A stretch of DNA of 64,000 nucleotides, from IMG/VR virus record IMGVR_UViG_3300004481_000388, positions 1-64,000 of that record; one strand, written 5' to 3'. Every line of letters begins with the position of its first letter. Position 1 is the stretch's first letter. The translations under genes were made by a program, and so were the position numbers. A model generated the notes under the pieces. That model searched no databases. It worked only from the letters and a program-made list of their open reading frames with translations, and had not been told where the DNA came from. This document shows, piece by piece, positions 6,646-28,579 of the stretch. This stretch comes from a virus.

Positions 6646-9354
6646 CTACGCGAACCTTAACACACGGGGGTCACACTTCACCCTCTCAGCTAACAACTTC
6701 GGTGTCCCCTTAATCTTAATCCCCTCCAAATTCTTAGCCCTACTAAGCGCCACATATACCATCCCAGGACTTGTGAAGAAGTTATGCCCAATGTCCACCT
6801 GTATCTTCTCAAGACTCAAGCCTTGCGTATTATGAGTGACTATTCCGTTAGCTACGAATACGTGCTCATCCTCCACTGATATATCTATCATAGGAATGTC
6901 TATGCCAAGATCAGTTACGCTCTTGACGTTATCCCAGTCACCTCGTCTAAATAAGATACGGTTGGGATTTAGTTGCTCTAGCTTCTCCTTCTTATAAGGG
7001 CGTGAGAAGCCTACATAAGTCTTGAACGCATCCAACCCCTCTGCGTTAACCCTAATCTGGTAGTAGGGGTTAACGTCTCCTTGATACTCACTGCGTCTAG
7101 TTGGTATGCCTAATGACTCTAGTAATATCTGTACTTGAAGTGATAGACGCTTAGAGGATGTAGCGTATAGCACGTACGATCTACCCACGCTTCCATCAGT
7201 ATCAAACAAGCCACGAAGAAATGCACATACCCAGGACTTCTTCATAGTAACAGCAAAGGGTACTTCCTTATCTAGTCCTGTTACGTGCTTCAACCCTAAC
7301 CCTTCCAACCATTCTCTAAATGGTAGAGAGGTGGAATGTAACCCTCTATTGTCACCACGTATAGATACCTTTCTACCTAAGTCTCCGAATATACGTACTA
7401 CTTCTGCCTGTAGAAATGGGTCTATTGTAGCTATATGAAGCTGCCCCTCTTTCTTATCGGAGTAGTTACCATCACCTACTATTACCCCCAACAACCAAGC
7501 TATATCGTCTGTGATATTAGGTACGCTAGGGTGTGAGTTATGGATGAGGTTGTTCATACCAAACTGTCCTATACGAACCTTTACTCCTTGAGGTAGTTCC
7601 TTAGTAGGTATAAACCCTTCTGGCGTAAGTAATGGGTGTTCCCCACTACAGATAAGTTCAAATCCTGAATAGGTAGTTACGCGATATGCACGACGTAGGG
7701 TGTTAGTCTTGTCATACGCATTCTCCATTCCTCCTATTCCTGTCTGTACCTTATCTCCATTAACTAACTCACTAATAGGAATAAGCCCACGAGTGGTTAG
7801 CACAAGGGTTTCAGGGGCTACACACTTATGCACACTACTCGCATACGCCAACCTTAATGGCGTGAACAACACCTGCCCCTTCACATACTTCTTATTCATC
7901 GTATTGAGGTAAGGCTTCTCGTTCTCCCTATACTCCGGTTTCCCTTCCTTCCCCAACCGATCCAACGACTTCTCACTACATCCATACCAACTCTCTACCC
8001 ACTCACTCACAATATCCTCCCTTACTACTTGCCCCACTTTCACCCTAGACCCGTTCCTCGCCAGCTTCACCGTTGCTACCTTCTCCTCATCATCCCACGC
8101 CTCAAGCCAACCACAATCCCCGTTGGCGTATGAGAACCGAGGGGAGTCATTAGCTAGGATCATTACGTAACTTCCTATCTTCAAGTTAAGTTCGTAGGGG
8201 ATATTGTTCTTCCACTCGGTACTCTCCTTCCCCCCTACATACCACCTCTTACTCCCTATCTTCACCTTCTCCCCATCCACATTCATAAGAGCTACGTCGT
8301 TGAAGTTATCTACTAACCTATTCACTGGGAATATGGTAGTGCCATCAAACTTGCTATCTAAGTTATCACTAAACTCTACCCCCGCCTCTATCAAACACCT
8401 TACTCCCTCTTCCCCACGCCCCACGCGTATATGATTCAACGCGTCTAATAATAGCGGGTTACTCTGTCTCCACACCTTTGTTAACTTCACTGTGTTAGGC
8501 TCGAATAATTCCTCCCACGAATCTCCTTCAAACGCAAACTTCCCACTCATCGGGTCTTTATTATCCTTCACAGGAGGGAGTTGGAGGAAGTCACCAGTCA
8601 ACCCCAACACAAAAGGCTTCTTCCCCTCAGCATCACGATATTTGTTCATCTCCTTTACGGCTAGTATGATAGTCTCTAGTGCATCAGCCTCGAACATACT
8701 TACCTCGTCAAGTATGATCCCTCCTATCTTACTCCCAATACGTTCGAGATTACGTAGTAACTTCCCTCGAATATACGCGTCTTTGAGGGATTGTGTGTTG
8801 TAGAATCCAAGGCGTGAGTGAATCGTCGTCGTGCCTATATTCACCGCCGCTATCCCCGTAGAGGCTAGTAGTTCCACATCTGCCCCCCCTTCTATCCACT
8901 TATTTAAGAGGTAGGACTTACCACTCCCAGCCACACCCGTCAAAAAAGGCGTGTTCATATTGTTAAGCCGTGAGATCGCACCGTAAGTAGTAATGTTCCC
9001 CTCATCATCGTACTCTCTCGTATCTTCCCCACTCCCATCACACACGTACGTCGCAGGAGCTACCTCACTAACCCCTACTCGCGGCGTAAACCCTCCACCT
9101 ATATGCTCATACACATCAAAGGGCTTATCTACGTCTGGTGAAAACCCCCCCTTAATAATCTCCTCCAATTCCTCAGTAGTAACAGGATTGGTAGCCACTG
9201 GTGGGTTCTCCTCCAACTCCTTCTCCAACCCACGAATAATCGCCGCATCTTTGGCATCTAGTTCCAACTCCCCTATTGTCTTCTTACTTAACCTAATAGT
9301 CCCACCACCTCCCACGCTATCACTATCGAAACCATAATCATTCATGTCGCTCAT
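6646..9354 (-). CDS. SF1 (Pif1/RecD-like) DNA helicase interrupted by an intein
   Basis: Walker A GVAGSGKSYLL, Walker B IILDEVSMF, GDFLQLPPV. Motif V is split as SSVHK | intein | TQGLSLE. Also YVALSRAK. Confidence 0.85.
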   Translation of the reverse strand: MSDMNDYGFDSDSVGGGGTIRLSKKTIGELELDAKDAAIIRGLEKELEENPPVATNPVTTEELEEIIKGGFSPDVDKPFDVYEHIGGGFTPRVGVSEVAPATYVCDGSGEDTREYDDEGNITTYGAISRLNNMNTPFLTGVAGSGKSYLLNKWIEGGADVELLASTGIAAVNIGTTTIHSRLGFYNTQSLKDAYIRGKLLRNLERIGSKIGGIILDEVSMFEADALETIILAVKEMNKYRDAEGKKPFVLGLTGDFLQLPPVKDNKDPMSGKFAFEGDSWEELFEPNTVKLTKVWRQSNPLLLDALNHIRVGRGEEGVRCLIEAGVEFSDNLDSKFDGTTIFPVNRLVDNFNDVALMNVDGEKVKIGSKRWYVGGKESTEWKNNIPYELNLKIGSYVMILANDSPRFSYANGDCGWLEAWDDEEKVATVKLARNGSRVKVGQVVREDIVSEWVESWYGCSEKSLDRLGKEGKPEYRENEKPYLNTMNKKYVKGQVLFTPLRLAYASSVHKCVAPETLVLTTRGLIPISELVNGDKVQTGIGGMENAYDKTNTLRRAYRVTTYSGFELICSGEHPLLTPEGFIPTKELPQGVKVRIGQFGMNNLIHNSHPSVPNITDDIAWLLGVIVGDGNYSDKKEGQLHIATIDPFLQAEVVRIFGDLGRKVSIRGDNRGLHSTSLPFREWLEGLGLKHVTGLDKEVPFAVTMKKSWVCAFLRGLFDTDGSVGRSYVLYATSSKRLSLQVQILLESLGIPTRRSEYQGDVNPYYQIRVNAEGLDAFKTYVGFSRPYKKEKLEQLNPNRILFRRGDWDNVKSVTDLGIDIPMIDISVEDEHVFVANGIVTHNTQGLSLEKIQVDIGHNFFTSPGMVYVALSRAKNLEGIKIKGTPKLLAERVKCDPRVLRFA
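6829..7824 (-). mobile_element. 332-aa intein with a LAGLIDADG homing-endonuclease domain, inserted in helicase motif V
   Basis: Starts with Cys (CVAPETLVLT) and ends with VTHN followed by Thr. Block B is CSGEHPLLT. LAGLIDADG motifs are LLGVIVGDGNY and FLRGLFDTDGSV. Removing it restores VHK-TQGLS. Confidence 0.85.
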
Positions 9355-9384
9355 ATTCTTGTCCTCTCTATGTTATAAGTTAAA

Positions 9385-9401
9385 TGTAAACTAGGTTGAC
9401 A
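9385..9401 (+). repeat. 17-bp phage repeat, type A copy (opposite to local gene orientation)
   Basis: TGTAAACTAGGTTGACA, upstream of the helicase start. Confidence 0.85.
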
Positions 9402-9843: not shown

Positions 9844-9899
<56 letters not shown>

Positions 9900-10718: not shown

Positions 10719-11954
10719 TTACGCTGCCGTCGCTTCTCCCTTCCCTTTAGGCGTAGGTTTCGCTGCCGCCTTCAACTCCTTCGCCTTCTCCTCCAATTTC
10801 TTCGCCTCCGCCATTCTCTTCTCCCGTGCCTCACGCTCCTTTTTCTTCGCAGCTTCTATCTTCTCCTGCTCCCGTTTTTTCGCCGCTAACTCCTTTTCCT
10901 TCTGCGCTTTCTTCGCCGCTAACTCCTTCTCCTTCTTCGCCTTCTCCTCGGCACGTTTCTTCTCCGCTTCTATCTTCTCCTTCTCTTTCGCCTTCGCCTC
11001 TGCCTCTTTCGCCTTTCTATCCTCCTCTTCCCTCTCCGCTACTGCTTCAGGTTCCACTAGATAGAGGAACGGATATTTCTCAACTATCTCCGCTCTCTCC
11101 TCCTTTGTCCCCACCTTACCCGCTAAGAACTTGAGAAGTGGCCGATACGCCTTACCCGTGTCTGGCGCTTCGATAAGGAAATTCAACTCGCTCTTACTCA
11201 ACGGGCGGAATCCCGGTATACTCTCCACCCCATCTCCTTGCTTCCCACCTTCCTTCGTCCCCGTGCTTCCACTCGTCACTCTATCACTCCCCGCCGCCGC
11301 CGCCTTTTCAAGTAAGTCGTTCAGCTTCTTGTCCTGCTTCTCGTGATTCGGCGTACCGTCCTTATTCTCAGTCGCCTTTACTATGTCAATAGCCTTTGTA
11401 CTACTGATCTTCTCATCCCGAATAGCCTGCACAAGCGTCGAACTACACCCAGTTAACTTGATGTAATCGGCGTACAACTGGCGACTACCAATATTAAACA
11501 CCTCCATCACCCGCTTAGCTGAACCGTGCGGGAGTTTCCCTGTTTCTCCATCACGTAAGAGTTCAAGGTAGTCCCGAATCTCGAACGCTACGTCAATCGG
11601 CGCTACCTGTTCTCTATCCGCATTCTCACTAATCTTCAACTCAGCCATTCCCAAGTAGTCAGTCGGCGGGATGTGGTAAACCTTAGCTACAAGACTGTCC
11701 AACACTCCCTCTGCCGCCTTCGTCCGTCGTCTCCCCGCCGCCACCAGATATGTTCCCTCTTCCGGCCCTGGCACAACGACTATATTTTGTAACTGTCCCT
11801 GCACCCGTAACTTCTCCGCGAGGTCAGCGTTACGTGGCTCTTTCACGCGACGATCCCACAGTGGGTGAGACGGGTCTTCCACAAGGATGAGTTGATCTAG
11901 TGGTATATCCAATATTTCTGTTTGATATTTGCCTGCTAGTTTTTCAATTTCCAT
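10719..11954 (-). CDS. ParB N-terminal-domain protein with a long K/E/A-rich repetitive C-terminal tail
   Basis: Part of ORF 10719..12032. ATG 11954 follows AAGGAAAGG. ParB box-like LVAAGRRRTKAAEG. Tail KEKELAAKKAQKEKELAAKK. Confidence 0.65.
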   Translation of the reverse strand: MEIEKLAGKYQTEILDIPLDQLILVEDPSHPLWDRRVKEPRNADLAEKLRVQGQLQNIVVVPGPEEGTYLVAAGRRRTKAAEGVLDSLVAKVYHIPPTDYLGMAELKISENADREQVAPIDVAFEIRDYLELLRDGETGKLPHGSAKRVMEVFNIGSRQLYADYIKLTGCSSTLVQAIRDEKISSTKAIDIVKATENKDGTPNHEKQDKKLNDLLEKAAAAGSDRVTSGSTGTKEGGKQGDGVESIPGFRPLSKSELNFLIEAPDTGKAYRPLLKFLAGKVGTKEERAEIVEKYPFLYLVEPEAVAEREEEDRKAKEAEAKAKEKEKIEAEKKRAEEKAKKEKELAAKKAQKEKELAAKKREQEKIEAAKKKEREAREKRMAEAKKLEEKAKELKAAAKPTPKGKGEATAA

Positions 11955-24074: not shown

Positions 24075-24118
24075 CTCTGCCCAACCCACATTGCAACGGA
24101 GCCCGCGCCGATGGATGT
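24075..24118. repeat. 44-nt GC-rich element, copy B
   Basis: CTCTGCCCAACCCACATTGCAACGGAGCCCGCGCCGATGGATGT, identical to 24509..24552. Confidence 0.95.
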
Positions 24119-24127
24119 GGTTGATAT

Positions 24128-24153
24128 GTGTTCACGAGGCGCCTCGTGAACAC
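24128..24153. other. perfect 26-bp palindrome adjacent to element copy B
   Basis: GTGTTCACGAGGC|GCCTCGTGAACAC. Confidence 0.9.
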
Positions 24154-24292
24154 GGCGTTATGCTGCGCTACGACCTCAGCGTCGGACAATGTTTGCAGTG
24201 TTGGCAAATCCGAAGCGGAAAGCTCCAGTGCCTAACACTGCGAGTTTCGTACTTGTGAATACCGATTGAGCAAAGAAATAAATAAAGAATTT

Positions 24293-24508: not shown

Positions 24509-24552
24509 CTCTGCCCAACCCACATTGCAACGGAGCCCGCGCCGATGGATGT
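24509..24552. repeat. 44-nt GC-rich element, copy A
   Basis: Identical to 24075..24118. Read in different frames by the two overlapping listed ORFs, so conservation is at the nucleotide level. Confidence 0.95.
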
Positions 24553-24684
24553 TGTGGTTTACGAGTGCGCGACGGCGCAACTCGTTGAACTTTGTGTTAA
24601 ACCTCCGCACTTGCAAACATCCGTTCGCCCCTTCGATGAGATGGGGCGAACTTTCTCTATTATTCTCCACCAAATACACCCCCC

Positions 24685-25277: not shown

Positions 25278-25790
25278 CTATCCTCTCTTCCCCTTCCCAA
25301 ACAACTCCCTCGGCACTCTCCCTTCCCTATACTCCCTCCACACATAATTCCCACTACTCGTCTTTTTCCACCTACCATCTACGCGCTTAGAGAACTCCCG
25401 CTCTATACGCCTCTCGTACTCCTCTTTCTCCCTCCCCTCACAGGCACGAATGGCCTCGTTCAATCGCTCCCCTTTCCTCTCCCTTGTACGAACTTCCAAC
25501 AATCGTGCCCCTAAATAGTTCAGTAGGGACAGCCCGCAAGAGAACGTGAGAAAGTACGTCCTGTTCCCGTATGTGAGTCGTGATACACTCACGCCGTTGA
25601 TACGCTTTTGCTTTTCTATCTTTACACTCTTTTCGTGCCTAAGTATCTCAGCGTAACACTTGGCACAGCGCGGCTCCCCTTTCCATATAGTTATGGCATA
25701 TTCCTTACACCGTAACTTTACTTGGTTAGTGGGAGACGTACGCCAGCCCGTGCAAGTGTGCGCGTTAATTGGTAGGTTTTCGTTTTGCAT
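25278..25790 (-). CDS. first gene of the leftward arm; hypothetical Cys-containing basic protein
   Basis: 170-aa ORF, CAKC plus additional Cys, K/R/E-rich C-terminus. Confidence 0.6.
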   Translation of the reverse strand: MQNENLPINAHTCTGWRTSPTNQVKLRCKEYAITIWKGEPRCAKCYAEILRHEKSVKIEKQKRINGVSVSRLTYGNRTYFLTFSCGLSLLNYLGARLLEVRTRERKGERLNEAIRACEGREKEEYERRIEREFSKRVDGRWKKTSSGNYVWREYREGRVPRELFGKGKRG

Positions 25791-25837
25791 AGTGGTTTAG
25801 TGGGGTGCGCGCTAAGTGTGCGCGTTAATTGGTAGGT
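25754..25837. repeat. pair of perfect 24-bp direct repeats (25754..25777 and 25814..25837)
   Basis: AAGTGTGCGCGTTAATTGGTAGGT occurs twice, 60 bp apart. One copy codes residues 5-12 of gene 25278..25790 and the other lies upstream of it. Confidence 0.95.
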
Positions 25838-25883: not shown

Positions 25884-25918
25884 GGAAATAAAAAAGGCTA
25901 GTCATTTGTGACTAGCCT
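25884..25918 (-). terminator. intrinsic terminator of the foreign 26-27 kb transcription unit
   Basis: Minus strand AGGCTAGTCA-caaa-TGACTAGCCT followed by TTTTTTATTT. Confidence 0.75.
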
Positions 25919-26060
25919 ATTGTTTATGTGTGAGTGGTACGCCCTAAAATGATAAGACAGGCTTATCACTTAAGCTAAATACTGCGCTGGAATAAACAGA
26001 GCAAAGATTGCCTGTTTCGAGTAAGACAAGAAACGTGGTGGGCGTATCTTGCATTATTAC

Positions 26061-26297
26061 CTATCCTTTGCAATAGACTTTATTGCAGAGGAAATCGGTA
26101 AACTTGCCTGCCATAGCGCGTTGATTGTCAAGTAACCAATTCATAGCTTGGATTTGTGGCCTTGTGATATTCATTAGATTGTCCTTTCTTGTGTTCGTAC
26201 ATTTGGAGTTTAGCTCAATGTAAAGTCGCTTTTGTAGCTTGACTGTGGGGTTGCCAGTGAGTCGTAACTTGTCGTAACTTGTTGTGATTATTGACAC
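26061..26297 (-). CDS. small hypothetical protein (GTG start, uncertain)
   Basis: 78-aa ORF downstream of the 281-aa gene. An internal Met gives a 37-aa alternative. Confidence 0.3.
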   Translation of the reverse strand: MSIITTSYDKLRLTGNPTVKLQKRLYIELNSKCTNTRKDNLMNITRPQIQAMNWLLDNQRAMAGKFTDFLCNKVYCKG

Positions 26298-26330
26298 TTA
26301 GGGAGTGTCAAGTAAATTCGTGGTCATTCG

Positions 26331-27176
26331 TTAGTCATTCTTCTTTGCGGCTGCTTTATCCCAGTCTTCAATAGCGGAAGACTGGCGGCGTTGAATGGCG
26401 CGGATGGTACGCCCGTAGACGCCGACTTGGACGACTTTCCTCAGATACTCACGCGATAGTTTGCCCTCAAAGAAGTCCACTTCTTCGTCAATTAGCTTAG
26501 TGGCTAATTGTTGCTTGCGTTCGTAGGCAGCAGTGATAATGTCGTCTAGCTTTGCCGCCAGACGTTCCATCGCGCCGTCTTTGTCAAAGCCCGTGAAATT
26601 AACATTGGCAAACCCTCGACGGCCTTCTGTTTCCCAAGGGAGTAATTCAGAAGTCCATTTAGTGGCTTTTTTAGCACCTTGTTCGGTGAAAGCCTTGCGC
26701 TCGTTTTTGGATTTACCATCGGCCAATTCGTTCAGGGCTAACAAGAACGTTGACCCGTTCAATTTGCTAACGTCAAACTTGAGTGGCGCAGTTAGAAATC
26801 TACTGCGCTCGTTATTGATTGATGCTTCAGTATCGGAACTAGCGGAGAAACTATCTGCTAGTTCCACCAGAGATACAAATAAGGTGTCTGTGTCTTTCTC
26901 ATCGCCATTCAAGCGTTCTTTTTTCCATTTGTCGCGTGTATCGGTTAGCAACGAACTGAGTGCCTGTTTGTAGTCACTCAAAGCGTTCTGGGATTCACGT
27001 TCGAGAATACTTTCGGGCGTTGGGATGGTAACCCAAGTAAATCTTAGTAACTCTCTCCTGCCATCCTTAGCCTTACCAGTCGCTTTTTGAGCATTGGCAG
27101 ATGCTTGAGTGTCCTTTGTTGTGAAAGTCGCGTTATTCGTTGAATTTGCCGTTGTGTTGCTTGTTACTTGTGTCAT
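26331..27176 (-). CDS. 281-aa orphan protein of foreign composition
   Basis: Long ORF without the purine-rich coding bias of the phage genes. N-terminus is T/N/S/A-rich. No catalytic motif recognised. Confidence 0.65.
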   Translation of the reverse strand: MTQVTSNTTANSTNNATFTTKDTQASANAQKATGKAKDGRRELLRFTWVTIPTPESILERESQNALSDYKQALSSLLTDTRDKWKKERLNGDEKDTDTLFVSLVELADSFSASSDTEASINNERSRFLTAPLKFDVSKLNGSTFLLALNELADGKSKNERKAFTEQGAKKATKWTSELLPWETEGRRGFANVNFTGFDKDGAMERLAAKLDDIITAAYERKQQLATKLIDEEVDFFEGKLSREYLRKVVQVGVYGRTIRAIQRRQSSAIEDWDKAAAKKND

Positions 27177-27756
27177 ATAGATTGTCCTTTCGTGTGGGGG
27201 TCATTATCCCACATTAGATGATGATTCAAACAGATGCCCTAGGCCAGCCCTTAACACACGCTATGGGCAGGACTAGGAAAATAGAGGACAAGCTACAAAA
27301 GCGGCTTTACATTCAACTAAACTCGAATCTATGTGTGTAACATTACCGCGATATGCACTAGGCGCGAAAGTCGAGGGTTATTCTCTCCTTTGCTTCGGTA
27401 CTGCGACCTGCTACCAGTCGCCTCAAGCCTCCTAAAAGATCATCTTAGGCTTTGCTATTCCCCAGCATACAGAGGTCGCACGAAGCTTTCTATATGTGGT
27501 CTGGGAAACCTAATGCACTCATAAGCCATACAAAGTACGCTTATGAGTATCGCTACGGATTATCAAAGATCATATCCCGCCAGGTAAGGCGTATTACCTG
27601 GCTAGCACCATTGCACGAAGCACCAAAAGCACCAATCCCAAAATGGGACGGCGGCACGATACTATAAAATCCGTATCTGTCAAGTGATGTTTTGAAGAAA
27701 AAGTGAGAAAAGTGCGTAATTACTAGGGAATAAAGGGGTTATGGGCGTGGAACACT

Positions 27757-27854
27757 CAACTGTCCGTGAAACTATCCAACTGTCAGGAAAAGACTCCAAC
27801 TGTCAGAAAAATCTGACACTTAGGTTGTCTAGTGCAAGAAAAATCTGGCGCTTA
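27757..27854. repeat. phased direct repeats (iteron-like)
   Basis: CAACTGTC at 27757, 27777 and 27797 (exact 20-bp period). AGAAAAATCTGRCRCTTA at 27805 and 27837. Confidence 0.85.
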
Positions 27855-27879
27855 ACGTATGATGTACGTTAAGCTGCAT

Positions 27880-27985
27880 TATATTGCGTATGCTTGAGGG
27901 ATATATTGCGCATATAGCAACGCACTATAACGCACACTCATTAACGCATTATATTTCCCATGTCGTACGCAATATATTGCGCATA
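27880..27985. repeat. AT-rich repeat/palindrome cluster
   Basis: ATATATTGCGCATA at 27901 and 27972, a related TATATTGCGTATGC near 27880, the 14-bp palindrome CGCAATATATTGCG at 27968..27981, and TAACGCA repeats. Confidence 0.85.
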
Positions 27986-28178
27986 ACATATACCAGCACC
28001 TCCCACTACCTACCACGTTTGACCACTACCACACACTAGCCGCACACACCCCACGCCCCACGCCACGCCACAAGGGGAGGGGAATAGTGCGATAATTGTC
28101 TCAAGGGTAGCCCCCAACCCCCCATAAAAAAGTGACCTGACACCACACTCTAATTTTTTTTTATTTTTTCTAACCCCA

Positions 28179-28195
28179 CGTCAACTTAGTTGGCT
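28179..28195 (+). repeat. degenerate 17-bp phage repeat
   Basis: CGTCAACTTAGTTGGCT. Confidence 0.5.
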
Positions 28196-28238
28196 CGTTA
28201 AAACTTCCTAATGTACTCTCACCGTATTAGGGGGCAGT

Positions 28239-28579
28239 GGTACAGGTGGTACAGCCTCGGTACAGCCCTTTTTACATACCTGTACCACCCTTATCCCCTT
28301 TATTTTCTTCTATTTATCTCTCTTTTGGTACAGGTGGTACAAGGAAAAGTAATATAATAAGGTAGAATAATGGAGTTTTCCACAGATAGGGGGTAAAATG
28401 GGGATGTTAAAGAGTGTCAAACTGTGGAAATGTGGAAAAACTGTGGAAAACCGATAAATCGAGAGAAGCACAATAGGGGCCGATCTGTACCAGAAAGGCA
28501 AAAAATAGGCTAAATATAGGTAAATAGGGAGGTTAGGGTGGTGCAGAGGGCTGGTACAGGGGTTGTACCAGTGGTACAG
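28239..28579. repeat. GGTACAG iteron cluster (about 10 copies, both orientations)
   Basis: GGTACAG at 28239, 28248, 28259, 28327, 28553 and 28573. CTGTACC at 28280 and 28485. Variants at 28336 and 28563. TGGTACAGGTGGTACA occurs twice. Confidence 0.9.
28421..28450. repeat. TGTGGAAA x3 direct repeats
   Basis: Copies at 28423, 28431 and 28443. Confidence 0.85.

Follow-up and report, generated by a model that had tools for sequence, protein, structure and literature searches.

Long-range pairing between the 5' and 3' parts of bacterial mRNAs has been found in a handful of single-gene cases, such as hok, icaR and hbs. A related geometry occurs in the RNase III processing stalks of 16S and 23S rRNA, in which sequences on both sides of a long product form a long duplex. 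In hok, a 5' element pairs with either the mRNA's own 3' end or a local partner, and this choice decides whether the Shine-Dalgarno (SD) sequence is sequestered; a metastable structure of the nascent RNA blocks co-transcriptional translation, the state of the 3' end sets translatability, and the 5'-3' stem locks the mRNA off. [quoted passage not shown] Similarly, a 14-bp 5'/3'-UTR interaction forms a long-range helix around the ORF of the hbs mRNA of Bacillus subtilis and modulates the access of ribonuclease to the structured leader (PMC5737220).

A much longer helix, drawn around a full-length ORF, was found in 64,000 nt of phage DNA (positions 1 to 64,000 of IMG/VR virus record IMGVR_UViG_3300004481_000388; hereafter, the window). 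On its minus strand, a 39-nt segment in the leader of a gene for a 281-aa protein (5' arm, 27289-27327) is 90% complementary to a segment past the stop codon (3' arm, 26203-26241). The two arms, with 1047 nt between them, enclose the whole ORF (26331-27176, minus strand), and the helix that they form is referred to here as the clamp. The 39-nt inverted repeat is absent from an earlier note on this DNA, which was made from the letters alone.

As in the other 5'/3'-UTR-pairing mRNAs, the complementary segments lie in the 5' leader and the 3' UTR. As in the rRNA stalks, flanking sequences form a long duplex, which at 31-59 bp across the family amounts to about two helical turns or more; the enclosed product, however, is a protein-coding ORF in a phage mRNA, and cleavage is putative. 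An ORF of about 850 nt (276-318 aa) inside a 31-59 bp helix also sets the locus apart from hok with its toxin peptide of about 50 aa, and the small toxic peptide ORF, overlapping leader ORF and cis-antisense RNA that define hok were not found here, the protein having 281 aa and no antisense RNA being identified. In contrast to icaR, the 3' arm pairs over 31-59 bp with an arm that itself bears an anti-SD segment, and the arrangement is conserved across the entire protein family. The hbs helix has the same long-range layout, but it is shorter (14 bp against 31-59 bp), belongs to a cellular housekeeping gene and has no described anti-SD overlap.

Equivalent arms were recognized in the related contigs L001, L002, L003, L004 and L010, and the clamp is present in six of six family members. 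In L003 it measures 31 nt at 94% complementarity and its sequence differs from that of the window; in L004 (58 nt) and L010 (59 nt) the sequences differ again. Overall, arm sequences are unrelated among four independent lineages, two of which are known from contigs of about 1.3 kb only. The RNAduplex energy between 160-nt flanks did not discriminate (background mean -52 kcal/mol), and an ungapped helix score over the same flanks was therefore used. The six members scored 18.9-33.7, while 75 other genes of these phages gave 8.6 +/- 1.4 with a maximum of 16. With unrelated arms in four lineages and all six members above the 75 control genes, the pairing itself is under selection, and the sequences indicate that it is kept by compensatory turnover as far back as the protein family is traceable.

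The strand on which the pairing acts was read from the positions in the arms that depart from Watson-Crick pairing. On the gene's strand, these comprise 18 G.U against 8 A.C (p = 0.038). The sense duplex is more stable than that of the opposite strand in L001, L002, L004 and L010 (in L010, -71.7 vs -50.2 kcal/mol). The opposite-strand duplex is the slightly more stable one in the window and L003; thus, wobble counts alone still allow a DNA-level repeat.

In minus-strand order, the locus consists of a promoter, a leader of about 475 nt without a credible ORF, the 281-aa ORF, a hairpin and an intrinsic terminator. This agrees with the self-contained leftward unit that the earlier note had described, with its own promoter, long structured non-coding leader, orphan protein and terminator. 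A promoter scan found a sigma-70-like promoter at 27656-27683 (TTGACA, 16-nt spacer, TATCGT), from which transcription probably starts near 27649-27652. The -35 element and TTTATAGTATCGT are identical across the window, L001 and L002, and the spacer differs in L001. The terminator (25884-25918), already noted from the letters, has a 10-bp stem (25895-25918) followed by TTTTTTATTTC on the minus strand and is kept in L001 and L002; in L003 and L010, a terminator directly follows the 3' arm of the clamp. Promoter-like and terminator-like hits in the unit region are no more frequent than in shuffles. From the positions of promoter and terminator, we infer that both arms lie on one transcript. Between the ORF and the 3' arm, the perfect 8-bp hairpin at 26291-26311 (minus strand, 20 nt past the stop codon), also seen earlier, is indeed present and kept in L001 and L002, where it includes a U.G pair on the gene's strand. 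On the opposite strand, the lone promoter-like hit in the unit (26291-26318) coincides with the palindrome of this hairpin, in keeping with the negative result for an antisense RNA.

The inner end of the 5' arm overlaps an anti-SD segment, UAGCUUGUCCUC (27284-27295, minus strand), which is complementary to the ribosome-binding site in the translation initiation region (27174-27192, minus strand; SD AAGGA at 27185-27189 and AUG at 27174-27176). In minimum-free-energy folds from the arm to 25 nt past the ATG, the initiation region pairs with the inner end of the 5' arm only, at six of six loci, and the RNAalifold consensus of the full leader contains this helix as well (helix 18). The observed value was reached in 22, 4, 9 and 115 of 500 shuffling trials in the four independent lineages, or roughly p = 7e-4 when combined by Fisher's method (hand calculation). 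The motif GAAAGGAC recurs at several other sites in these contigs and may be their common ribosome-binding site; if so, part of the complementarity between arm and ribosome-binding site is less specific than it appears. The effect of adding the 3' arm was a weak thermodynamic test: the probability that the SD is unpaired rises by 0.04-0.34 at five of the six loci and falls in the window, from 0.57 to 0.43.

A helix that encloses its ORF points to an unusual built-in control over the timing of translation or processing. On balance, and with moderate confidence, we favour reading the clamp as an mRNA-level 5'/3' device that acts on an early gene under tight control, either by gating its translation or by serving as an RNase III processing site. 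During transcription, the 5' arm would pair locally with the ribosome-binding site and keep it closed; the 3' arm, once made, would pair with the 5' arm's outer part, still free, and displace the ribosome-binding site, with the outcome that complete transcripts only would be translated. Because the 5' arm doubles as anti-SD, it is a natural candidate for such a 'translate only when complete' switch. The proposed device would resemble hok in that a 5' element pairs with either the 3' end or a local partner to decide SD sequestration, and in that nascent structure blocks premature translation until the state of the 3' end permits it. Its logic would be inverted, however: since the 5' arm is here the anti-SD itself, 5'-3' pairing should open the ribosome-binding site rather than lock it. 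The long duplex is also a good candidate substrate for RNase III. Cleavage within it would separate the ORF mRNA, its ends still paired, from the leader RNA on one side and a variable small ORF on the other, in the manner of an rRNA-style processing stalk placed on a phage mRNA. Either way, the locus offers a clean system in which to test co-transcriptional RNA switching.

The leader (27177-27652, minus strand) is a folded RNA on the gene's strand. RNAalifold gave -106.6 kcal/mol with 28 compensated pairs on this strand, compared with -65.1 kcal/mol and 16 pairs on the opposite one. Shuffled alignments gave 11.6 +/- 2.5 compensated pairs, none of 500 reaching 28, and slid controls gave 0-4; the fold z-score on the gene's strand is modest (-2.9). 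The local stems pointed out earlier are real and several of them covary. The GTGGG/CCCAC hairpin just 5' of the ribosome-binding site (27193-27211, helix 20) has three compensated pairs, as does a hairpin at 27518-27547 (helix 7). Another at 27579-27602 (helix 5) has four and reads GGUAA/UUACC, GACGU/ACGUC and GGUGA/UCACC in three phages. A CTTCGG tetraloop-like motif that had also been listed lies on the strand opposite the transcript; the RNA reads CCGAAG there and has no tetraloop. The leader begins with a hairpin, GCCGUCCCA-UUU-UGGGAUUGGUG (27630-27653, helix 2). Its first 58 nt or so are identical between the window and L001 and differ at three positions in L002, which keeps the terminal hairpin through U.G and G.U pairs that fit the gene's strand only. 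Synonymous sites are near saturation (pS 0.59-0.65), yet the clamp arms too are largely conserved between the window and L001.

Within the conserved stretch, TGGTGCT occurs three times in 31 nt (27604-27634, minus strand), out of 13 copies in the 64 kb. A role as a Chi-like genome-wide motif was considered and set aside: 13 copies compare with 6.8 expected, 5 of 100 shuffles reach 13 and there is no clear overall enrichment. The region 27177-27655 holds ORFs of 34-71 aa only, and their lengths and starts are not conserved in the relatives, which bears out the claim that it contains no credible ORF. A leader peptide or opposite-strand ORF in the identical stretch was rejected as well; neither starts nor lengths are kept, an SD is lacking, and substitutions track stem complementarity rather than codon position. 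A retron or a defence-associated reverse-transcriptase unit would carry a reverse-transcriptase domain next to its ncRNA; no such domain was found by Pfam or PADLOC in any of the six members, in line with the lack of a YxDD motif noted earlier.

These features raise the question of whether the leader is itself the main product, a stand-alone non-coding RNA (protein sponge, regulatory or counter-defence RNA) with the clamp mainly its RNase III maturation site, comparable to the stalks of rRNA operons, and the protein a co-transcribed partner. The identity of the 58 nt with their three TGGTGCT copies despite saturated synonymous sites is what such an RNA would display, as is covariation across several helices. 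The leader of L003 holds a comparable cluster, six GGTG[AC] in 80 nt, which is the top cluster of that contig, and all contigs with sufficient upstream sequence have long leaders (about 475, 610 and more than 600 nt; at least 380 nt in L005). Yet the 5' domain is unrecognizable beyond three close relatives: a covariance model of the first 150 nt (R1) matched these only and found nothing in L003 or L005. No Rfam 15 family matched the window or the six loci at the gathering score, and a search to E 10 returned only chance-level microRNA and snoRNA hits (E>=3.5). ARAGORN detected no tRNA or tmRNA, and no extended complementarity that could mark a trans target was seen elsewhere in the window. Moreover, the clamp goes with the ORF and not with the leader, being present in L010, for which the known upstream sequence amounts to a few bases. 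We therefore regard the leader as main product as unlikely, while ranking it first among the alternatives to a device that controls the ORF.

The 281-aa protein is under purifying selection, with a dN/dS of 0.12-0.15 and synonymous sites near saturation (pS 0.59-0.65). Its ORF is present where it had first been placed, and the family to which it belongs is new and, in a set of about 15 billion proteins, is represented by six sequence clusters. Its orphan status, without a recognizable motif, was upheld by domain, profile and structure searches, and no routine phage protein family matched. Single sequences and profiles had no match in Pfam, PHROGs, NCBIfam, PADLOC or PDB. The models from two AlphaFold2 runs were poor (pLDDT 38.5 and 49.4), and Foldseek returned nothing for them at E<=0.001 in PDB and BFVD. 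A double-stranded-RNA-binding domain (hhalign against the E. coli RNase III dsRBD, probability 0.1%) and paralogy with the phage's 282-aa protein were both rejected. The INPHARED phage collection contained no DNA or protein match, IMG/VR, JGI metagenomes and GTDB genomes yielded no further relatives by DNA pattern or protein, and two further profile searches added no family members. The locus also draws attention to an entirely uncharacterized early protein under strong constraint, from a phage lineage that the reference phage collections searched here do not contain. Control this tight and this well conserved suggests an early function in which dose or timing is critical, for example host takeover, counter-defence or replication; were the protein to serve in counter-defence or takeover, the clamp would account for the restraint on its dose.

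A bolder proposal, and a fairly long shot, is that leader RNA, clamped mRNA and orphan protein form a new kind of phage RNA-protein module. The duplex, or an excised ORF RNA with its ends paired and possibly joined, would then be functional in itself, for example as a decoy for, or trigger of, host systems that sense or cleave RNA, and the protein would act in cis on the mRNA that encodes it. If this were true, the clamp would be more than a gene-expression switch.

The genomic setting is best explained by an early gene that is resident in a little-known lineage of phages and probably has its own leftward transcript. The earlier note had called it a foreign, accessory moron, a view that it held to be incompatible with carriage of the segment by related phages. 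With its own promoter and terminator, the unit does have the makings of a moron. However, the relatives carry it in the same place: its position is unchanged in each of the four related phage contigs whose flanks are long enough for the comparison, L001, L002 and L003 among them, and only the small ORF past the 3' arm is patchy. An ordinary unconserved spacer upstream, which the note had named as another refuting outcome, is contradicted by the covariation and conservation of the leader. The unit is 72-74% identical at the nucleotide level to L001 and L002, against 94-96% in the flanks. It differs in composition from its neighbours, as had been claimed, and also lies in a mosaic, deeply diverged block. 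The ORF's coding-strand GC skew (-0.005) does stand out from the +0.13 to +0.66 of 18 other leftward genes; the late genes (37-59 kb) are also near 0, so the strand bias does not extend over 'the rest of the phage' in the way that had been stated. In contrast to the unit's shared position, L001 has a truly patchy segment: a stretch at 7313-7970 holds two genes with no counterpart in the window, one of which is an Acb2/Tad1-domain gene (7759-7974).

This setting also bears on a possible replication module, in which the protein would bind the origin or act in the manner of an initiator. In plasmid Rep genes, dose is held down by RNA structure, and the clamp would do the same here. The unit is the first gene beside an iteron-rich, gene-free region (27750-28350 in the window, 8090-9050 in L003), and all the long contigs place it across from the primase-helicase arm. 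The block diverged from L001 (23.5-31.3 kb) takes in small genes from about 23.5 kb, the unit, the iteron region and the primase. On the other hand, divergence from L002 is limited to about 25.3-27.5 kb, with promoter-proximal DNA at 88-100% identity, and no DNA-binding or Rep-like domain was detected in the protein. Adjacency being the sole positive evidence, we consider a replication role improbable.

Even less probable, by a little, is that the arms act at the DNA level, as the terminal inverted repeats that bound an IS-like cassette (about 1.1 kb) whose 281-aa protein is a new transposase, the pairing of 5' arm and ribosome-binding site being a fold-back inhibition of the type found in IS10. 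The geometry fits, the element measuring 1.0-1.15 kb between repeats of 31-59 bp and being filled by one ORF, and so do the mosaic block and a composition unlike that of the neighbours. Against this, searches of Pfam, NCBIfam and PHROGs turned up no transposase or recombinase domain, and no fold matched; the family has six clusters only among about 15 billion proteins, with never more than one copy per contig. The arms lack flanking direct repeats (target duplications were not seen), and G.U exceeds A.C on the coding strand. The unit also holds the same position in four phages, and its divergence tracks that of the primase (in L003, 35% identity for the protein homologue and 34% for the primase). 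That an ordinary spacer and an ordinary hypothetical gene came by these repeats and stems through chance, as the shuffle-level frequency of promoter-like and terminator-like hits and the fold z-score might allow, has a nearly negligible probability given a clamp in six of six members and 0 of 75 controls, compensatory changes in the leader and non-coding segments more conserved than saturated synonymous sites.

Downstream of the clamp lies a variable slot (26061-26189, minus strand). The 78-aa ORF proposed there earlier (26061-26297) would begin with a translated 3' arm; a typical ribosome-binding site (26175-26189) instead precedes an internal ATG at 26174, which opens a 37-aa ORF. The small ORF has no Pfam match. 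In the relatives, the slot holds unrelated ORFs of 51 aa (L001) and 101 aa (L002), and none in L003 and L010. The effect of the clamp on downstream genes is not uniform, because the ribosome-binding site of the next gene lies within the 3' arm in L004 and outside it in the window.

The genes of the window, which looks like a phage genome, form two divergent arms, leftward below ~25.8 kb and rightward above ~28.9 kb. The unit is encoded on the minus strand, where the leftward arm comes closest to the rightward one. In the direction of transcription, and with all features on the minus strand, it comprises a sigma-70-like promoter located by promoter scan (TTGACA-16 nt-TATCGT, 27683-27656), a leader of ~475 nt (~27652-27177), a ribosome-binding site (RBS; AAGGA, 27189-27185), the 281-aa ORF (27176-26331), a perfect 8-bp hairpin (26311-26291), a short ORF of 37 aa with its ATG at 26174 and a typical RBS in front, and an intrinsic terminator, whose 10-bp stem (25918-25895) precedes a run of T. 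The coordinates of the earlier note were correct, as were most of the stems it listed; its CTTCGG motif belongs to the other strand and not to that of the transcript. What it had read as a possible 78-aa ORF is reduced to the 37-aa frame and its RBS, the first part being merely a translated repeat arm. The note set the unit apart from the rest of the phage by its missing purine-rich coding-strand bias; measured as G-over-C skew, the difference holds against the 18 other leftward genes (-0.005 versus +0.13 to +0.66) and not against the late genes, which lack the skew likewise. Early and replication genes (window 2-36 kb) carry a strong coding-strand G-over-C excess (skew +0.13 to +0.66) and late structural genes (37-59 kb) have a skew near 0; thus, skew tracks gene class, not replication arm.

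The 281-aa protein had no match in a reference phage collection. A word-indexed search of 5.8 billion proteins returned only two relatives (82% and 75% identity), and when 1.84 billion cluster representatives were searched exhaustively with a HMMER profile, three members joined them, P0004 (E = 6e-42) and P0005 and P0006 (E about 1e-7 to 1e-6), the last two known solely from contigs of 1.0-1.5 kb; further searches added none. Homologues are encoded at loci L001 (62.7-kb contig) and L002 (12.5-kb contig), from close relatives of the window phage, at L003 (46.7-kb contig), from a distant relative, and at L004 and L010. The family evidence comes from only four independent lineages, two of them on very short contigs.

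The ORF is a real gene, with dN/dS of 0.12-0.15 and synonymous sites near saturation (pS 0.51-0.65) among three close relatives, and the motifs LSDY, NELADG, GxDxDGxM and QVxxYGR are conserved as far as the distant members. Sequence searches of Pfam, PHROGs, NCBIfam, PADLOC and PDB gave no match. AlphaFold2 models were poor (pLDDT 38.5 from a 3-sequence and 49.4 from a 6-sequence alignment), and with these Foldseek returned nothing significant. Secondary-structure prediction gives a disordered T/N-rich N-terminus and then helices, a single beta-hairpin and, towards the C-terminus, long helices; a test for a dsRNA-binding domain was negative. The first 90 nt of the ORF (window 27087-27176, minus strand; also in L001, L002 and L003), which encode the disordered N-terminus, are C-rich and G-poor (C 28-31%, G 13-14%), a bias that is weaker in L004 and L010. 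This stretch could be an unstructured aid to initiation, or Rho-loading-like.

In every family member the ORF is bracketed by the arms of a long-range helix (the clamp), with a 5' arm in the leader and a 3' arm past the stop codon. In the window, the arms at 27289-27327 and 26203-26241 (90 nt past the stop codon) are 90% complementary over 39 nt. The corresponding arms lie at 9893-9938/10919-10963 in L001 (two overlapping segments, 28 nt at 82% and 22 nt at 86%), 885-907/1931-1953 in L002 (23 nt, 87%), 9897-9927/10924-10954 in L003 (31 nt, 94%), 139-196/1089-1146 in L004 (58 nt, 74%) and 14-72/1102-1160 in L010 (59 nt, 75%). Arm sequences are unrelated, or nearly so, across the four lineages; complementarity was kept, and sequence was not, as the protein diverged to 23-35% identity. 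When each gene was scored for the best ungapped helix that its upstream and downstream 160-nt flanks could form (124 nt for L010, set by the contig end), the six family members reached 18.9-33.7, against 8.6 +/- 1.4 (maximum 16) for 75 other genes of the window, L001 and L003. The ORF-enclosing complementarity is conserved and specific to the 281-aa protein family.

The 5' arm also overlaps an anti-Shine-Dalgarno sequence. In folds of the RNA spanning the 5' arm through 25 nt beyond the start codon, 9-12 of the 17 nt of the initiation region were paired at all six loci, always with the inner end of the 5' arm; in the window, UAGCUUGUCC pairs with GGACAAUCUA. This helix is also present, as helix 18, in the consensus that RNAalifold gives for the whole leader. 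In 500 trials each with dinucleotide-shuffled arms, the observed arm-to-RBS energy was reached 22 times for the window, 4 times for L003, 9 times for L010 and 115 times for L004, the last of which has a further 19-nt match across codons 1-6; combined over the four independent lineages by Fisher's method, these tests give roughly p = 7e-4. The RBS and the 3' arm pair with overlapping stretches of the 5' arm, so that the two helices largely exclude each other. Addition of the 3' arm to partition-function calculations raised the unpaired probability of the Shine-Dalgarno (SD) sequence at five of six loci and lowered it in the window, which argues only weakly for release of the site.

During transcription, the 5' arm would close the RBS, and once the 3' arm was made the long-range helix, much the more stable of the two (-40 to -75 kcal/mol; arm-to-RBS helix, about -13 to -17), would form and free it, so that the mRNA would be translated only once complete, with its 3' end intact. 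Alternatively or additionally, the 31-59 bp duplex may be cut by RNase III, which would split off the leader RNA on one side and the variable ORF downstream on the other, so that the ORF mRNA remained with its ends paired. As a family, these RNA-level explanations, gating of translation by the clamp and/or RNase III cleavage, are the ones we favour, at slightly better than an even chance.

Known systems offer partial parallels. In rRNA processing stalks, sequences on both sides of the product form a long duplex, as here, although they enclose rRNA and not a protein-coding ORF. The hok mRNA combines a 5'-3' stem (tac/fbi) with alternative SD sequestration (PMC9841398), as in the unit; however, its polarity is opposite, its size is very different and it has an antisense RNA, none being evident in the unit. 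[quoted passage not shown] Similarly, a 5'/3' UTR helix modulates RNase access in hbs mRNA (PMC5737220), although that helix is only 14 bp. We see in the unit a variation on such known mRNA control, coupled to a protein family that is new.

On the gene's strand, the leader is a folded RNA. In an alignment of the window, L001 and L002 (A5), the consensus fold has 128 pairs, 28 of them with compensatory double changes, a number reached in 0 of 500 column shuffles (11.6 +/- 2.5) and falling to 0-4 when 3' partners were slid by 1-3 columns. The alignment folds at -106.6 kcal/mol (covariation term -8.7) on this strand and at -65.1 kcal/mol (covariation term positive) on the opposite one. The first ~58 transcribed nt, identical in the window and L001 and differing at three positions in L002, hold a hairpin at their 5' end and, within 31 nt, TGGTGCT three times (window 27604-27634, minus strand), and the central domain differs by ~130 nt between the window and L001/L002. 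L003 has a long leader of its own, predicted to be structured (z = -3.4), which a covariance model of the window clade's 5' domain did not detect; it carries six GGTG[AC] in 80 nt (9334-9400), the densest cluster on that contig. These repeats could be protein-binding sites on RNA or on DNA. UGGUGC would be complementary to GCACCA, the sequence at the tRNA 3' end. A single-stranded motif, AAUCAUCUAAU, is conserved in window-clade leaders (window 27211-27230, minus strand) and L003 (~9878-9890), at a different place relative to the 5' arm. An Rfam search of the leader, a check named in the earlier note, matched no family, and the unit is outside every described RNA and protein family. With such compensation, the leader might be a stand-alone RNA and the clamp its maturation site; we think this unlikely.

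The position of the unit does not vary among the window, L001, L002 and L003: on one side is the leftward early arm, on the other a gene-free region rich in iterons that faces the primase-helicase arm. Identity with L001 is 73% for the 281-aa protein and 56% for primase, and with L003 35% and 34%, respectively, the protein having diverged about as much as primase or less. Thus, the unit is a resident gene of the lineage and not a sporadic moron. The window and L001/L002 share 94-96% identity over long stretches and 72-74% across the unit, which makes it an old, diverged allele in a mosaic block; since synonymous sites are saturated, the identical leader start and conserved arms are themselves under selection. 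A replication-module protein under RNA dose control would suit this position; the protein matched no family, and we consider the idea quite improbable.

The arms may instead be DNA-level terminal repeats of an IS-like cassette. Non-Watson-Crick arm positions on the coding strand are G.U in 18 cases and A.C in 8 (one-sided binomial p = 0.038), and duplex stability favours the coding strand in L001, L002, L004 and L010 (in L010, -71.7 versus -50.2 kcal/mol, with 9 G.U pairs) and slightly favours the other strand in the window and L003. This evidence favours mRNA pairing over a purely DNA-level repeat only moderately; set beside the fixed position of the unit, a cassette seems very unlikely. Chance, given the scores of the control genes, is scarcely credible.

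What is truly variable in the region is the small ORF past the 3' arm and a stretch of L001 (7313-7970) with two genes, of 104 and 71 aa, and no counterpart in the window. The slot between 3' arm and terminator (window 26061-26189; L001 about 10981-11151; L002 1969-2287) holds mutually unrelated ORFs of 37, 51 and 101 aa, respectively, with a similar RBS in front and no Pfam match; in L003 and L010 it holds no ORF. In the L001 71-aa product (7759-7974, minus strand), an Acb2/Tad1 hairpin domain passes Pfam's cut-off (E = 2.9e-11); this seems to be a true counter-defence moron between the same two arms.

Several repeats were also seen. Between the hairpin that follows the stop codon and the 3' arm, the window has a tandem 10-nt duplication (TCGTAACTTG x2, plus strand, 26262-26281), which L001 and L002 lack. 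Just past the terminator of the unit and ahead of the next leftward gene, AAGTGTGCGCGTTAATTGGTAGGT forms a perfect direct repeat of 24 nt (25754-25777 and 25814-25837, 60 nt apart), and the adjoining TAAACTGTCAACTAAGTTTACATCC is conserved in L001 and L002. Short direct repeats and palindromes (such as AGAAAAATCTGRCRCTTA, ATATATTGCGCATA and TGGTACAGGTGGTACA, each x2) crowd the gene-free region between the divergent arms (window 27750-28350), which also has an A/T tract at 28155-28172 and is probably an origin or operator; L003 has an analogous gene-free region (1.5-2.4 kb) with GGAACTTTGGAACTTT repeats. Further, a hairpin-forming element of ~85 nt (AACCCACATTGCAACGGAG...CGGCGCAACTCGTTGAAC), without an Rfam match, occurs twice in the window (24517-24598 and about 24085-24165, plus strand) and once, at 88% identity, in L003 (2276-2356), a distant phage with just ~34% protein identity; there it belongs to another arm, and its orientation to the unit is not the same.
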